From a virus, in UHGV virus genome UHGV-1341913: a stretch of DNA of 27,453 nt. One strand, given 5' to 3'. The notes beneath the pieces were generated by a model. That model had not been told where the DNA came from. It ran no database searches and was given only the letters and a program-made list of their open reading frames with translations. Within the stretch, counting starts at the first letter, position 1. Each line of letters starts with the position of its first letter. Both the position numbers and the translations under genes were made by a program. Shown piece by piece: positions 2,619 to 12,453 of the stretch.

Positions 2619-2867
2619 ATGATTAAACAATTACAACACGCTCTTGAACTGCAACGAAACGCATGGAATAATGGTCACGAAAACTATGGCGCATCTATTG
2701 ATGTTGAAGCCGAAGCTCTTGAAATCCTGCGTTATTTCAAACATCTGAATCCTGCTCAAACTGCATTAGCTGCTGAGCTTCAGGAAAAAGATGAACTTAA
2801 ATATGCTAAGCCACTGGCTTCTGCTGCACGAAAAGCAGTTCGTCATTTTGTGGTAACACTGAAGTAA
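2619..2867 (+). CDS. rIII: rIII lysis-inhibition accessory protein
   Basis: 82-aa ORF at the position of rIII between gene 31 and the 30.x cluster. Length matches T4 RIII. Confidence 0.85.
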   Translation: MIKQLQHALELQRNAWNNGHENYGASIDVEAEALEILRYFKHLNPAQTALAAELQEKDELKYAKPLASAARKAVRHFVVTLK

Positions 2868-2928
2868 TTTATTGGAGATTCACTGCCTTAGTGTGAGCTA
2901 AAATCGAGGAGCCGTCGAACTGTCTGAT

Positions 2929-2956
2929 TAATGATTTGCGAATCATTATAGTTTTT
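2929..2956 (+). terminator. possible intrinsic terminator after rIII (AT-rich hairpin plus T-run)
   Basis: Perfect 8-bp stem TAATGATT / AATCATTA with loop TGCG (2929..2948), followed by TTTTT at 2952..2956. The stem is AT-rich, so stability is modest. Confidence 0.3.
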
Positions 2957-3266
2957 AAGACCCCGGCAGTTTTACGGTGTACCTCTTGAATGTTATTCTT
3001 ATAGCGGCAAGTGCATGCTACCCCGAGGTGATGGCCAATCGGGAGTACGCCTCAAGGCCTATATATCCATCAGTATATATCTTATCCTCGAGAAATCGAA
3101 CCCGGAACCTTTAAGCTAACGGTGTGCAACAGATAAGAGCTATAAGGTATGTTGACGAGGTTTATGGTTATCCTGTCGGTAAATATTCAAAACCTAAGTA
3201 CCCCCTTGAGGGCTTTCGCAGGCAATGCCAATAAGTCCTGCATTTTCATTTAAAAGAGAATTTATA

Positions 3267-3443
3267 ATGGCAAAACAAGCTAAAGCAAAGAAAGCAGTTG
3301 AAAAGAAAGTTGGTGATTCTAAACGCGCTGGCTACAAGCGTGGGTCGAACTCTCGTATCAATCAAACTGTTGAGAAGATCATGCGCCGAGCACGTGCGGT
3401 TCTTCGAGATGATGCTTCTCGTTTTGGTAAGCAGAAAGCATAA
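3267..3443 (+). CDS. small basic hypothetical protein (30.9 position)
   Basis: ORF track begins at ATG 3225, but that start has no RBS. The in-frame ATG at 3267 is preceded by aaaagagaa and gives a 58-aa lysine/arginine-rich protein (MAKQAKAKKAVEKK...). Confidence 0.6.
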   Translation: MAKQAKAKKAVEKKVGDSKRAGYKRGSNSRINQTVEKIMRRARAVLRDDASRFGKQKA

Positions 3444-3446
3444 GTT

Positions 3447-3473
3447 GAGGACTCCTTCGGGAGTCCTTTTTTA
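3447..3473 (+). terminator. rho-independent terminator (UUCG-loop hairpin plus T-run)
   Basis: GGACTCC-TTCG-GGAGTCC stem-loop directly followed by TTTTTT, just after the 30.9 stop. Confidence 0.7.
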
Positions 3474-3496: not shown

Positions 3497-3526
3497 GTTT
3501 ACAGTATGATTCCTTTGTGATAGTAT
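3497..3526 (+). promoter_or_regulatory. T4 early-type promoter (GTTTAC -35, TAGTAT -10)
   Basis: GTTTAC at 3497..3502, 18-nt spacer, TAGTAT at 3521..3526, upstream of the 3554 ORF. Confidence 0.5.
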
Positions 3527-5048: not shown

Positions 5049-5499
5049 GCTAGAGATAAGAAGCAATTTTAAATGGCCATCATGCGCATTAAGTAATTTC
5101 GCCCAATGGCCTTTCGTTATGGATGGTATTCAATTTGGAGGTCTCGAAGGATTCCTCCAAGGATGCAAGGTGAAAAATGTTGAACAGCAACGTCGTATAT
5201 TTGGGTTATCCGGGCTTGCCGCCCAACAAGCTGGAAGGTCTTGTGCTAGAGCTCAGGACCGTGGGACCCTCTTTTGGCTTGGAGTTCCGTTTTCAAGATA
5301 CTCACCGGCGTGGAAAGAATTATACACAAATGCATATTTTGAAGCAGCGTTCCAAAACAAGGGCTTTCGTGATGCATTACAAGCCTCGAAAGGAAAAGTT
5401 TTGAAGCACAGCATGGCTAGTGGTCTAACAAAAGATGATACAATACTAACCGAAGCTGAATTTATTGATGTGTTAAACCTATTAAGAGACTCTCTATGA
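5035..5499 (+). CDS. NADAR / YbiA-like (DUF1768) domain protein (30.3 position)
   Basis: 154-aa ORF. The segment LSNFAQWPFVMDGIQF...EGFLQ resembles the FSNFAAWPIKVDG...EHYFQ core of E. coli YbiA (NADAR family). The central part of the gene is conspicuously GC-rich (62 of 120 nt G+C over 5161..5280 by hand count). Confidence 0.6.
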   Translation: MKMSELEIRSNFKWPSCALSNFAQWPFVMDGIQFGGLEGFLQGCKVKNVEQQRRIFGLSGLAAQQAGRSCARAQDRGTLFWLGVPFSRYSPAWKELYTNAYFEAAFQNKGFRDALQASKGKVLKHSMASGLTKDDTILTEAEFIDVLNLLRDSL

Positions 5500-8295: not shown

Positions 8296-10392
8296 ATGAT
8301 GGAACTCATTACAGAATTATTTGACGAAGATACTACTCTTCCGATTACAAACTTAAATCCAAAGAAGAAAATACCGCAAATTTTTTCAGTTCATGTTGAT
8401 GACGCAATTGAACAACCAGGCTTTCGTTTGTGTACCTATACATCTGGAGGTGATACTAATCGCGATTTAAAGATGGGCGATAAAATGATGCATATTGTTC
8501 CTTTTACATTAACTGCTAAAGGTTCAATTGCTAAATTAAAAGGTCTCGGTCCAAGCCCAATTAATTACATCAATTCAGTTTTTACTGTTGCAATGCAAAC
8601 GATGCGTCAGTATAAAATTGATGCCTGTATGCTCCGTATTCTTAAGTCTAAAACTGCTGGTCAAGCTCGTCAAATTCAACTTATTGCTGATAGACTTATC
8701 CGCAGTCGTTCAGGTGGCAGATACGTCCTTCTTAAGGAACTCTGGGATTACGATAAAAAGTACGCATATATTCTTATACATCGCAAAAATGTATCATTAG
8801 AAGACATTCCAGGAGTTCCGGAAATTAGTACAGAGCTCTTTACTAAAGTTGAATCGAAGGTCGGCGATGTTTATATCAATAAAGATACCGGAGCTCAAGT
8901 AACTAAAAATGAGGCCATTGCAGCATCTATTGCGCAAGAAAACGATAAACGTTCTGACCAAGCTGTAATCGTTAAAGTTAAAATTTCCCGTAGAGCAATT
9001 GCACAAAGTCAATCATTAGAATCTTCTAGATTTGAAAGTGAATTATTCCAGAAGTATGAATCTACCGCAGCTAATTTCAATAAACCTGCTACCGCTCCTT
9101 TAATTCCCGAAGCAGAAGAAATGAAACTTGGAATTAATTCATTAGCTTCTAAAACCAAGGCAGCAAAAATTATTGCCGAAGGAACCGCAAATGAACTTCA
9201 TTATGATTATAAATTCTTTTCAAAAAGTGAGGTTGATGAAGTTTCTGAAAAGATTAAAGATGTAATTCTTAATGCGATTAAAAATGAACCAACTACTTCA
9301 ATAAAATGTTTAGAGAAATACGCAGCAGCTGTTAATCAATTCTTTGAAGAATATAAAGATAATTGGCTTGATAAACACAATAAAACTCGTAAAGGACAGA
9401 CAGATGAAGTCTGGGAAGAAATAACTAAAAATTCCTGGAACGCAGCAAAAACTAAATTCCTCAAAAGAATGATTTATAGCTTTTCTGGAATTGGTGCAGG
9501 TCCAATGATTGATATTACTATTGCCCGCGATGGTTCTAAATATACTCCATCACAAAAGCGCGGCATTAGAGAGTATTGTGGTTCAGGATATACTGACATC
9601 AATAATCTTCTTTTAGGACGCTACAATCCAGAACGATATGATGTAATGAGTGAAAAAGAAATTGAATCTGCGATAAATAATTTAGATTCAGCCTTTGAAA
9701 ATGGTGACCGTATACCAGAAGGCATTACAGTTTATCGTGCTCAAAGCATGACTGCTCCTATATACGAAGCACTAGTTAAAAATAAAGTGTTCTATTTCAG
9801 AAATTTTGTATCTACTTCTTTAACTCCTATCATTTTTGGACGTTTTGGAATTACGCATGCTGGTATTGGTCTTTTAGAACCAGAAGCTCGTAATGAATTG
9901 ACAGTTGATAAAAATGAAGAAGGAATAACTATTAATTCAAACGAAATAAGAGCGTATAAAGAAAATCCCGAATACGTTAAAGTTCAAATAGGATGGGCAA
10001 TTGATGGAGCTCATAAAGTTAATGTTGTATATCCAGGAAGCCTCGGAATAGCAACAGAAGCTGAAGTTATTCTACCACGCGGATTGATGGTCAAAGTTAA
10101 TAAAATAACTGATGCTTCTAATAATGACGGAACAACATCTAATAATACAAAACTCATTCAAGCTGAAGTTATGACTACGGAAGAACTCACTGAATCAGTA
10201 ATTTATGACGGTGACCGTCTAATGGAAACTGGTGAAGTAGTTGCAATGACAGGTGATATTGAAATAGAAGACAGAGTTGACTTTGCATCATTTGTTTCAT
10301 CAAATGTTAAACAAAAAGTAGAATCATCTCTTGGAATTATTGCATCTTGCATAGATATTGCAAGCATGCCTTACAAGTTCATTCAAGGATAA
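8296..10392 (+). CDS. alt: ADP-ribosyltransferase Alt (virion-packaged; modifies host RNA polymerase)
   Basis: 698-aa ORF (an alternative start at 8299 gives MELITELF, the T4 Alt N-terminus as I recall it). C-terminal region carries the R-S-E class ART motifs: YRAQ, FVSTSL, EAEVILPRG. RBS agagagga. Confidence 0.88.
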   Translation: MMELITELFDEDTTLPITNLNPKKKIPQIFSVHVDDAIEQPGFRLCTYTSGGDTNRDLKMGDKMMHIVPFTLTAKGSIAKLKGLGPSPINYINSVFTVAMQTMRQYKIDACMLRILKSKTAGQARQIQLIADRLIRSRSGGRYVLLKELWDYDKKYAYILIHRKNVSLEDIPGVPEISTELFTKVESKVGDVYINKDTGAQVTKNEAIAASIAQENDKRSDQAVIVKVKISRRAIAQSQSLESSRFESELFQKYESTAANFNKPATAPLIPEAEEMKLGINSLASKTKAAKIIAEGTANELHYDYKFFSKSEVDEVSEKIKDVILNAIKNEPTTSIKCLEKYAAAVNQFFEEYKDNWLDKHNKTRKGQTDEVWEEITKNSWNAAKTKFLKRMIYSFSGIGAGPMIDITIARDGSKYTPSQKRGIREYCGSGYTDINNLLLGRYNPERYDVMSEKEIESAINNLDSAFENGDRIPEGITVYRAQSMTAPIYEALVKNKVFYFRNFVSTSLTPIIFGRFGITHAGIGLLEPEARNELTVDKNEEGITINSNEIRAYKENPEYVKVQIGWAIDGAHKVNVVYPGSLGIATEAEVILPRGLMVKVNKITDASNNDGTTSNNTKLIQAEVMTTEELTESVIYDGDRLMETGEVVAMTGDIEIEDRVDFASFVSSNVKQKVESSLGIIASCIDIASMPYKFIQG

Positions 10393-10395
10393 ATC

Positions 10396-12453
10396 ATGGA
10401 ACTTATTACAGAATTATTTGACGGCGCTTCGGCGCCGGTTGTTAACTTAAATCCTAAGCATAAAATACCTCAAATTTTTGCTATTCAAGCCGGTGAAGAA
10501 AGCGTGCTTCCTGGATTTAGATTTTGTACATACACCTCCGGTGGTGATACAAATAAAAACGTTAAGCCAGGCGATAAAATGATGCATATCGTAATGATAG
10601 GTGTCAATGAGAAACTATCATTAGTTAAACTTAAAAACTTGGGTGGAAATCCAATTGGTGTCATTAATGCGGTTTTTGATACTGCTCTTCAAACAATGAA
10701 ACAGTATAAAATTGACGCATGCCTATTCCGCGTACTAAAAAGTAAAACAAATGGCGCTGCTCGTCAGATGCAAGTTATTGCTGACCGTTTAGTACGTACT
10801 AAAGGAGCAGGTCGATATGTTCTTTTAAAGGAAATCTGGGATTACGATAAAAAGTATGCATATATTATGGTTTACCGTAAAAATGCCAATTTAGAAGACA
10901 TTCCAGGTGTACCTCCTATTTCAACTGAGTTATTCACAAAAGTTGAATCAAAGGTTGGTGATGTTTATGTAGATGTTAAAACAGGTAATGCTGTTCCTAA
11001 AGCTGTTGCTGTTGCTGCTTCTATTGCTTTAGAAAATGATAAGCGCACGGATCAAGCTGTTATTCAGAAAACTAAAATTAGTCGTCGATTAGCAGCACAA
11101 GCTCAATATTCTACTGTCGATGCTTCGCTACAGGGTGATAGCTTCGCTGCCAAGAAATATCAAGAGTTTGAATCTAAAGTTCCGGTATATAAAGCAGAAG
11201 GACCAATGAACTCTGGCGTTATTCAGATTGGTTCCAACTTCAGCAAAGGAGCTATCGGTGGTATGAGAAGTGCTTCTCGTTTTAAATCTAACGATTATGA
11301 ACTAGAAAGCTTCCGAAATCATATTGCATTGGCCCATGCACGTTTACGTGATCCGTCTATCAGACTGCAGAGCGATATAACACATCAAGGTTCTCAAGAA
11401 TATTTAAAGAATAAAGAATTTTTTGATTATAAAACCGATAAAATTTTGAGCGATCTCGCTGACATTAATATTTCTAATAGCTTTGATGTTATTAAGAAAA
11501 TTATCAATGATTTAGTTAAAGGTTCTAAAGCCACACCAGACGAAAAGGTAGCTATTATTCAATTTGTCATGAATGGCATTTATAAATTGATTAATGAATC
11601 TGCTGCTCAGGCATATGAATATGCAAGCACCGAAGTAACTCCAAAAGGACTGACTCAGGCTGAGTCTGATGTAATTGAAGATTATTGTGCAGATTCATAT
11701 GTTGAAATGAACTCGTTCCTCTTGGGTAAACCAGATTCTACCCGTGAAGAATACATGGAACGAGCTATTAAACACATCGAGACGCTGGATTCTGCATTCG
11801 CCAAAGGATCAGTTCTTCCTCCAGGAACTACGCTTTATCGTGGGCAAGAAGTTACTTTTAAAACTTTACGTCATAATATTGAAAATAAAATGTTCTATTT
11901 CAAGAACTTCGTATCCACGTCGCTTAAACCAAATATCTTCGGTGAGCATGGTAAAAACTATATGGCTCTAGATGATTCCGGCGCAGTATTTTCTGGTGAA
12001 GGAGAAGGTTCTGTTGATGCTGAAGATTTAATGCATATGGGTAGTCATTCTGCATATGCTAATGAAGATGCTGAAGCTAGCGTAGGTATGGTAATTAAAG
12101 GGGCTGAGCGAATCAAAGTTATCGTTCCAGGTCATTTATCAGGATTTCCATCAGAAGCTGAAGTTATTCTACCGCGTGGAATTTTGTTGAAGATTAATAA
12201 AGTAAGCACGTACATGATGAAAGAAACTGCCTATAACAAGTATCTAATCGAAGGCACAATCGTTCCTCCTTCTGAACAATTAGAAGAATCGGTATATGAT
12301 GGCGATCATCTAATGGAAACTGGTGAAGTTCGTCCAATGGCTGGGTTTAATCAATTCCTTGTAGAAGAATCAAAAGAAGAGGAAACTGAAGTTTCTCAAA
12401 TCTTGGCTTCTTTGGTTAACATCAACGGAATGTCTAAAAAGTTCAAGATGTAG
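10396..12453 (+). CDS. Alt-like ADP-ribosyltransferase paralog (intact second copy)
   Basis: 685-aa ORF starting 3 nt after the alt stop. The N-terminal ~230 aa are clearly homologous to Alt (MELITELFDG..., KIPQIF, GFRFCTYTSGGDTN, KQYKIDAC, GRYVLLKE, WDYDKKYAYI). ART motifs retained: YRGQ, FVSTSL, EAEVILPRG. Confidence 0.8.
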   Translation: MELITELFDGASAPVVNLNPKHKIPQIFAIQAGEESVLPGFRFCTYTSGGDTNKNVKPGDKMMHIVMIGVNEKLSLVKLKNLGGNPIGVINAVFDTALQTMKQYKIDACLFRVLKSKTNGAARQMQVIADRLVRTKGAGRYVLLKEIWDYDKKYAYIMVYRKNANLEDIPGVPPISTELFTKVESKVGDVYVDVKTGNAVPKAVAVAASIALENDKRTDQAVIQKTKISRRLAAQAQYSTVDASLQGDSFAAKKYQEFESKVPVYKAEGPMNSGVIQIGSNFSKGAIGGMRSASRFKSNDYELESFRNHIALAHARLRDPSIRLQSDITHQGSQEYLKNKEFFDYKTDKILSDLADINISNSFDVIKKIINDLVKGSKATPDEKVAIIQFVMNGIYKLINESAAQAYEYASTEVTPKGLTQAESDVIEDYCADSYVEMNSFLLGKPDSTREEYMERAIKHIETLDSAFAKGSVLPPGTTLYRGQEVTFKTLRHNIENKMFYFKNFVSTSLKPNIFGEHGKNYMALDDSGAVFSGEGEGSVDAEDLMHMGSHSAYANEDAEASVGMVIKGAERIKVIVPGHLSGFPSEAEVILPRGILLKINKVSTYMMKETAYNKYLIEGTIVPPSEQLEESVYDGDHLMETGEVRPMAGFNQFLVEESKEEETEVSQILASLVNINGMSKKFKM
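10422..10437 (+). other. GC-only UUCG-tetraloop hairpin embedded in the coding sequence
   Basis: CGGCGC-TTCG-GCGCCG, a perfect 6-bp G/C stem, lies 26-41 nt downstream of the paralog ATG and encodes G-A-S-A-P. The first alt copy has unrelated sequence at the equivalent position. Confidence 0.5.

Follow-up and report, generated by a model that had tools for sequence, protein, structure and literature searches.

A conserved, predicted structured RNA in the rIII-30.9 spacer of T4-like phages that T4 itself lacks

T4-type genomes carry PeSLs, mobile modules that consist of a short terminator stem-loop and an early promoter (PMC2839356, PMC4122927), the early promoter criterion being TTTACW N17 TAYWAT. 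T4 also has the stable small RNAs rnaC and rnaD, and Rfam holds orphan phage and bacterial RNA motifs of the Weinberg/Breaker type. Here we compare with these systems an element found in 27,453 nucleotides (nt) of UHGV virus genome UHGV-1341913, a stretch referred to below as the window. The window is a segment of a T4-like (Tequatrovirus) genome presented in the direction of transcription, with the gene order cd, 31.2, 31.1, 31, rIII, gap, 30.9, 30.8, 30.7 ... DNA ligase, and the element lies in the gap between rIII and 30.9. Covariation indicates that positions 2998-3146 of the plus strand encode an autonomously folding structured RNA module of ~150 nt. A structured non-coding RNA had been one of four unranked candidates in an earlier, sequence-only reading of this gap, and it is the one that the covariation strongly supports.

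The predicted fold comprises seven covarying helices, P0-P6. The outermost, P0, bounds a four-way junction in which virtually no nucleotide is left unpaired. Its parts are as follows.

2998-3004, plus strand: 5' strand of P0, the outer clamp stem; CUUAUAG, pairing with 3140-3146.
3005-3139, plus strand: conserved core of 135 nt, CGGCAAG...CAGAUAAGAG.
3006-3059, plus strand: 5' arm, in which P1 encloses the conserved joiner AAGNGCAU and P2.
3006-3008/3057-3059, plus strand: helix P1, GGC/GCC.
3017-3029/3034-3050, plus strand: P2, a long bulged hairpin with double compensatory changes in 9 of 13 pairs.
3060-3079, plus strand: hairpin P3, with a 7-bp stem (3060-3066/3073-3079) and the loop CCAUCA (consensus YCAUYR).
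3080-3138, plus strand: 3' arm, with P4, a three-way junction with P5 and P6, and the joiner GCAACA.
3080-3086/3132-3138, plus strand: helix P4, UCUUAUC/GAUAAGA, 3 pairs with double changes.
3088-3091/3096-3099, plus strand: helix P5, here with a GAAA loop, 3 pairs with double changes.
3100-3104/3120-3125, plus strand: helix P6, 2 pairs with double changes.
3140-3146, plus strand: 3' strand of P0, CUAUAAG.

P4 coincides exactly with the inverted repeat TCTTATC/GATAAGA that the sequence-only reading had noted at 3080-3086 and 3132-3138. In P1, the C-G pair is replaced by U-A in Yersinia phage fHe-Yen9-01, and double changes are found in 3 of the 7 pairs of P3. The P5 tetraloop is GAAA, GUAA or UAAA among the members, the 15-nt loop of P6 (3105-3119) is nearly invariant with the consensus GAMCCUUUAAGCUAA, and the joiner GCAACA (3126-3131) within the 3' arm is invariant. 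Element lengths among members are 132, 134, 135, 136 and 144 nt.

With RNAalifold, 17 distinct cores yielded 39 pairs, 13 of them with compensatory double changes. A covariance model was built and used to find divergent members; it scores the window core at 167.9 bits (E 1e-35) and recovered members in Erwinia phage Cronus, Escherichia phage EcS1 and fHe-Yen9-01 at 80%, 72% and 67% identity, respectively, all with the fold kept. Over 19 distinct sequences, in the alignment fitted to the model, 99.3% of pair cells are canonical and both sides have changed in 21 of the 39 pairs, values that were reached by 0 of 500 shuffles; sliding the partners by 1-3 columns lowered pairing to 26-43%. Each of the six helices P1-P6 contains compensatory pairs. 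P0, which sits in otherwise unconserved flanks, was assessed in 24 distinct flank pairs aligned without gaps, with 76.8% paired as compared to 52.7% after shuffling and 29-52% after sliding, and its innermost pair is AU in 12, GC in 10, GU in one and UA in one, with none unpaired. Minimum free energy folds of single divergent members recover the same arms independently, on the plus strand only.

The strand on which the structure is read could be assigned from the G-U pairs. On the plus strand, G-U or U-G accounts for about 39 pair cells, which would be A-C mismatches on the minus strand, and the closing pair of P3 is U-G in 16 of the 19 sequences, which is permitted on the plus strand only. 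As G-U pairs are tolerated in this one orientation, selection appears to act on RNA and not on DNA; together with minus-strand folds that are inconsistent among members (z-scores -0.9 to +1.5), this points to an RNA read in the direction of rIII and 30.9. The same plus-strand-only G-U pairs speak against a replication or packaging element, which the sequence-only reading had also considered.

For the phyletic distribution, the 399-nt gap was searched with BLAST against 50,697 phage records. It matched 999 of these, only 180 of them with at least 80% of the gap covered. In T4, T2, RB51 and RB69 the match falls into two pieces, with the flanks in common and the middle absent, and direct alignment shows the rIII-30.9 spacer of T4 (244 nt) to be collinear with the window save for a ~155-nt insertion at ~2994-3150. 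In Jiaodavirus, Kanagawavirus and Moonvirus, only the middle 135 nt match, at 94-96% identity, with unalignable flanks. The earlier reading had allowed that the segment might prove to be plain spacing of the kind found in T4; T4 has the flanks and no core, and the core is conserved elsewhere with compensatory changes, so that the comparison favours a genuine element.

The 135-nt core by itself matched 411 phage records, with Klebsiella (161), Escherichia (131), Shigella (27), Enterobacter (27), Yersinia (18) and others as hosts. The carriers span at least ten enterobacterial T4-like genera; those seen include Tequatro-, Dhaka-, Jiaoda-, Kanagawa-, Karam-, Moon-, Marfa- and Muldoonvirus, to which Cronus, EcS1 and fHe-Yen9-01 are added. 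Among 48 rIII loci from IMG/VR, 21 carry the element, with covariance model scores of 98-171 bits, and in all 21, as in at least ten genera, its place is on the gene strand, with rIII before it and 30.9 after it. The other 27 gave no match, nor did the 21 of them that were rechecked with filters off. The element is thus either a strong match or absent among these loci, with no intermediates, and its presence or absence differs between close relatives. At all loci inspected rIII is the upstream and 30.9 the downstream neighbour. Each genome has one copy of the element, its locus does not vary, and no target-site duplications were found at it; the core is 100% identical between a Tequatrovirus and Dhakavirus JS98.

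No exact match to a conserved 20-mer was found in bacterial and archaeal genomes (one genome per species, 185,579 species) and no match to the element in 5,426 E. coli genomes, and plasmids gave just two 30-nt chance matches; derivation from a host or plasmid, or mimicry of one, was rejected on these grounds. In metagenomes, all matches were located on T4-like contigs. Two looser patterns applied to IMG/VR retrieved 60 extra loci, all of them attributable to chance and none with a covariance-model match. In Klebsiella phage vB_KpnM_17-11 (MW239157.1, ~35670-35889) the element is in two pieces, apparently on opposite strands; this copy could be disrupted or rearranged, or an assembly artefact.

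When the window is compared with other genera, identity is 85-100% for the core, 67-84% for rIII DNA and 59-81% for 30.9 DNA, so that purifying selection is stronger on the core than on the proteins encoded beside it. As the divergent members carry many compensatory changes, this conservation reflects long-term selection and not merely recent transfer.

The gap is also conspicuous by its composition. The 357 nt at 2868-3224 are the sole stretch of more than 150 nt in the window without an open reading frame (ORF) of at least 50 amino acids (aa) in any frame, the second-largest being 147 nt (2472-2618), so that the ORF-free island from which the sequence-only reading had started is real. Its addition that no ORF exceeds 34 codons holds for ATG starts, but GTG starts open frames of 45 aa (2977-3114) and 36 aa (3124-3234). 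The G+C content of 3001-3060, counted by hand as about 60%, is exactly 60.0%, which is reached by just 0.07% of 60-nt windows, and that of the 135-nt core is 48.9%, in the top 0.6% among 135-nt windows. For 2868-3266 as a whole we measured 41.9% and not the ~45% first given; the background is AT-rich as described, with a window mean of 35.4%.

Around the element, the gap and its borders contain the following features.

2619-2867, plus strand: gene rIII, an ORF of 82 aa, annotated as rIII in related records.
2929-2956, plus strand: AU-rich hairpin (8 bp, UGCG loop, -4.7 kcal/mol) with a U-run, resembling a weak intrinsic terminator.
3154-3186, plus strand: motif A, a conserved hairpin (GACGAGG...CCUGUC) with UAAAUAU after it, a separate leader element also present in T4.
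3200-3213, plus strand: motif B, a small hairpin CCCCUUGAGGG in the 30.9 leader, kept across genera including T4.
3267-3443, plus strand: gene 30.9, 58 aa, very basic, PHROG 1427.

The rIII protein is 65-76% identical to rIII of seven phages, and the 30.9 protein has no Pfam match. The AT-rich hairpin with T-run was where it had been reported, with an 8-bp stem at 2929-2936/2941-2948 and the T-run at 2952-2956; it is shared with T4 and therefore lies outside the insertion, and it has too few G-C pairs to be called in the terminator scan. Motif A is found downstream of the element in Tequatro-, Karam- and Moonvirus, EcS1, fHe-Yen9-01 and Cronus, and upstream of it in Jiaoda-, Kanagawa- and Muldoonvirus. 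A second ORF of 34 aa, at 3149-3253, is spurious, as judged by eye from the alignment with T4, because compensating indels relative to T4 change the frame while the nucleotides are conserved.

Further structured or conserved segments were observed in the same leaders. A second conserved structured cassette of ~60 nt is located at 2529-2590 (motif 2551-2583), in the spacer between gene 31 and rIII in Tequatrovirus; it recurs at 2662-2719 of locus L002 and at ~5085-5100 (minus strand) of the T4 locus L001, and in Jiaoda-, Moon- and Muldoonvirus and phage PG7 it stands between the RNA element and 30.9. Its 33-nt motif CUGUCGAAAGAAGNUGAANNUCNGAAGAACGUG is held in a stem GGUAGUC/GACUACC here and GGGAGC/GCUCCC in Jiaodavirus, the inner stem also changes compensatorily, and no Rfam family matches it at the gathering threshold. 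The sequence AUGUAUUUCUCCAAAAUGGAAGA is conserved before the 30.9 start in Jiaoda-, Kanagawa-, Karam- and Muldoonvirus (~2715-2745 in L002; also L003, L045, L053 and L056), where it forms a mini-ORF, MYFSKMED, sometimes as an in-frame fusion with 30.9; base pairing of its UCUCC with the Shine-Dalgarno region (GGAAGA) is possible. The segment 2876-2904 (ATTCACTGCCTTAGTGTGAGCTAAAAT, also in T4) agrees in 19 of 28 positions with GTTCACTGCCGTATAGGCAGCTAAGAAA, which we take to be the type I-F CRISPR repeat, and the resemblance is probably due to chance. The hairpin of that repeat is not preserved, and variants of the 2876-2904 module directly adjoin the RNA element in Jiaodavirus and fHe-Yen9-01.

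Beyond the gap, 30.9 is followed by a strong intrinsic terminator at 3447-3468 (9-bp stem and T-run), to which the weak Rfam matches to Atu_C8 and Phe_leader correspond, and not to the element, and 30.8 is preceded by a T4-early-type promoter at 3498-3526 (TTTACA N17 TAGTAT); together these form a PeSL-like terminator-promoter pair. Farther downstream, after the DNA ligase gene, two tandem ORFs of ~690 aa (8296-10392 and 10396-12453) both contain the PF03496 ADP-ribosyltransferase exoenzyme domain, and their products look like Alt paralogues.

For rIII, promoters of the early, middle and late types are described (PMC9409239). A promoter and terminator scan called none in 2868-3266 and no terminator after the element. 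We infer that the element is made within transcripts that run from rIII toward 30.9, because it shares the strand of both genes, lacks its own terminator and, for P0 to form, needs an RNA that begins upstream of it.

As to function, the element may be an accessory, cis-acting recognition platform in the rIII-30.9 message that tunes its processing, stability or translation, an interpretation to which we give an even chance of being correct. In such a mechanism, the element would act as RNA and in cis, as a specific platform on which a protein or small ligand docks, and the bound partner would tune the processing, stability or translation of the mRNA that carries rIII and the 30.9-30.1 cluster; the module would be accessory, as T4, T2 and RB69 are cleanly without it. 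This interpretation is drawn from the constant gene neighbourhood and orientation, from the absence of a terminator belonging to the element and from the further portable structured cassettes that these leaders contain. The distance from rIII also favours it, as the element starts 11-27 nt past the rIII stop codon in six lineages; in others it starts 83-119 nt past it.

Several observations count against it. The distance from the element to the start of 30.9 varies from 56 to 185 nt, with independent hairpins in between, and which side of motif A the element occupies depends on the genus, all of which argues against tight mechanical coupling to 30.9; the changing order relative to motif A implies that the element behaves as a self-contained module and not as half of a switch. 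No expression platform is evident, in that no overlapping terminator or anti-Shine-Dalgarno element was found; in a test for a riboswitch, the core appears aptamer-like, with the same missing platform and variable spacing. The unpaired loops are near-invariant, which is more than a simple stabiliser needs and would fit a ribonucleoprotein, an aptamer or a catalytic core equally well. By eye, an unconfirmed T4-early-like promoter in Tequatro- and Dhakavirus (TTTTAC-N18-TGnTATTCT) overlaps the 5' strand of P0; it would start RNA at ~3006, thereby leaving out this strand, in conflict with P0. Finally, the main pair counts come from an alignment fitted to the model, and folding-energy z-scores are modest (-2.2 to +0.2).

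A possible alternative, which we regard as tentative, is a stable trans-acting RNA that is cut from the rIII-30.9 transcript at or near P0 and serves as a ribonucleoprotein component or decoy, for instance in host takeover or counter-defence. It would explain better than a cis module why there is a closed outer clamp stem, which brings the two RNA ends together, why the loops hardly vary, and why the element is present in some close relatives and absent from others, a pattern typical of accessory anti-host functions. The variable position in the spacer and the lack of an evident expression platform agree with it as well, and rnaC and rnaD provide a precedent in T4. However, the scan gave no clear promoter or terminator belonging to the element, and there is no evidence for processing sites. 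No similar bacterial sequence was found, hence no obvious molecule to mimic; the complement of the invariant 15-nt loop occurs no better than expected by chance in the window; and no partner gene is linked, as the 30.9-30.1 series of ORFs and their sizes are as in T4.

It is improbable that the element is a self-cleaving ribozyme or another RNA-processing module that separates rIII from the message of the 30.9 cluster. Self-cleaving ribozymes are common in phage genomes, and the compact multi-junction fold, its invariant unpaired nucleotides and the intercistronic placement would be compatible with one. However, no covariance model of the known classes (hammerhead, twister, twister-sister, pistol, hatchet, HDV-like and hairpin) matched the 166-nt element alone at E<=10, and its ~150 nt exceed the size of the small self-cleaving classes. 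Strings that by eye we took to be hairpin-ribozyme-like loops were rejected, as they fall inside helices that covary as ordinary pairs.

Still less probable is a selfish or regulatory DNA cassette, such as a promoter-carrying insertion or a PeSL-like recombination module, whose conservation would result from recent spread. Such a cassette would explain the insertion/deletion polymorphism with sharp ends, the complete identity of the Tequatrovirus and JS98 copies and the genus-dependent order relative to motif A, and the insertion brings a -10-like TGnTATTCT, as seen by eye, to a suitable distance from TTTTAC. It is opposed by the seven helices with compensatory changes, including G-U pairs, in members down to 67% identity, which attest to long-term selection on RNA pairing, by the lack of target-site duplications, the single copy per genome and the constant locus, and by a promoter scan that calls nothing at the element; PeSLs are different, being a short terminator stem-loop with an early promoter (PMC4122927).

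A small protein gene (the 34-aa ORF at 3015-3119) or a degenerate tRNA is effectively excluded: several GenBank records annotate hypothetical proteins at this position and the minus strand does contain GGGTTCGAT, but indels of 1-9 nt among members break the ORF or shift its frame in many of them, leaving their longest ORFs in different frames and of different lengths, and ARAGORN and the Rfam tRNA model are both negative.

The remaining identities proposed for the gap were examined with ARAGORN, which found 0 tRNA or tmRNA genes in the window, and with the 4227 models of Rfam 15. The whole window had no Rfam match at the gathering threshold; over the element nothing was reported at E<=10, either for the region or for six divergent members, and the isolated 166-nt element had no match at all with the laxest filters. 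The minus-strand GGGTTCGAT, read earlier as reminiscent of a tRNA T-loop, is present (3095-3103 in plus-strand numbering) but is not a T-loop, because the string consists of the 3' strand of P5 and the 5' strand of P6 and varies with these helices, being replaced in relatives by ATCGGACCC, ATCAGACCC, ATCTAACCC and others; it is, moreover, on the non-structured strand. With no tRNA and no group I or II intron match in Rfam at E<=10, the suggestion of a degenerate tRNA or intron remnant was dropped, and so was that of the scar of a lost homing-endonuclease gene, for which no conserved ORF exists and the ends of the intergenic element are sharp and conserved.

Every GenBank record examined leaves the element un- or misannotated. 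The labels placed over it include a 34-aa 'hypothetical protein', a '1,4-alpha-glucan (glycogen) branching enzyme GH-13-type' and, on P2, a WebGeSTer 'rho-independent terminator' (e.g. NC_070779 KM16, ON720975, OL964745 and OL960580), and these annotations appear spurious. More than 400 genome annotations could be corrected from the element. It went unseen in the best-studied phage group because T4 lacks it. Among phages of Klebsiella, Enterobacter and Citrobacter, whole genera have it as a fixed feature, and many of these phages were isolated for use in therapy. This fixation, together with conservation above that of the neighbouring proteins, implies that the element has a specific molecular partner and contributes to fitness. 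It is conceivable, if doubtful, that the element founds a new, T-even-specific class of functional RNA, be it a riboswitch-like sensor, a ribozyme, or a ribonucleoprotein or decoy in host takeover or counter-defence; such a class would then have been missed for decades, the model phage T4 being without it. The natural plus and minus variants in near-isogenic backgrounds offer a tractable system for a new RNA function in phage infection.

Of the described systems, rnaC and rnaD resemble the element in being small (119-139 nt) non-coding RNAs of T-even phages that are GC-richer than the surrounding genome. They differ from it in their location in the tRNA cluster and share neither sequence nor structure with it, and rnaC ends in a tRNA-like T-arm that is absent from the element. 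Run with filters off on the T4 tRNA region, the covariance model scored 7.7 bits (E 0.27) at best, at a site other than rnaC or rnaD, and kinship was rejected. PeSLs are likewise portable non-coding modules in intergenic regions of T4-type phages, with indels between close relatives, whereas the element is a 150-nt multi-junction fold in a gap where the scan found neither promoter nor terminator.

tRNAs share with the element a four-way junction, a 7-bp closing stem, a near absence of unpaired junction nucleotides and the appearance of a GC-rich island in an AT-rich phage. The arm sizes of the element are wrong for a tRNA, and it lacks a 7-nt anticodon loop as well as any conserved D-loop or T-loop; this candidate was rejected, with no ARAGORN or Rfam tRNA hit and with a T-loop-like string that is unconserved and on the wrong strand.

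The SAM-I (S-box) riboswitch is similar in its multi-helix junction, variable closing stem and invariant junction nucleotides, and in its location upstream of a same-strand gene. The 3' arm moreover shares ordered blocks with what we take to be the S-box consensus (UCUUAUC ... ACCCGG(C)AACC ... GGUG.GC.AA ... AGAUAAGAG). Membership was nevertheless rejected, as RF00162 and its clan do not match even the isolated element. The arm forms a three-way junction in a different register, in contrast to the four-way junction (P1-P4) of SAM-I, whose P2 contains a K-turn and a pseudoknot. Covariation pairs ACCCG with CGGUGU in the element, unlike the P3 pairing of the S-box, and the element is without the K-turn P2, without the S-box P4 and without a coupled terminator or a platform that would sequester the Shine-Dalgarno sequence.

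The closest likeness in kind is to the orphan phage and bacterial motifs, with which the element has in common a conserved intergenic block, covarying helices and invariant loops, and from those in Rfam it differs in matching none of the 4227 models. No paper with the sequence of the element or with an RNA between rIII and 30.9 was found in the literature searched; older, non-open papers on the 31-30 region may note the insertion. As it is in neither Rfam 15 nor the literature searched, we class the family as new, and it may be present, unnamed, among the more than 10,000 viral candidates of PMC10690425. By this comparison, the element is a new family within a known kind, that of the orphan phage structured RNAs.

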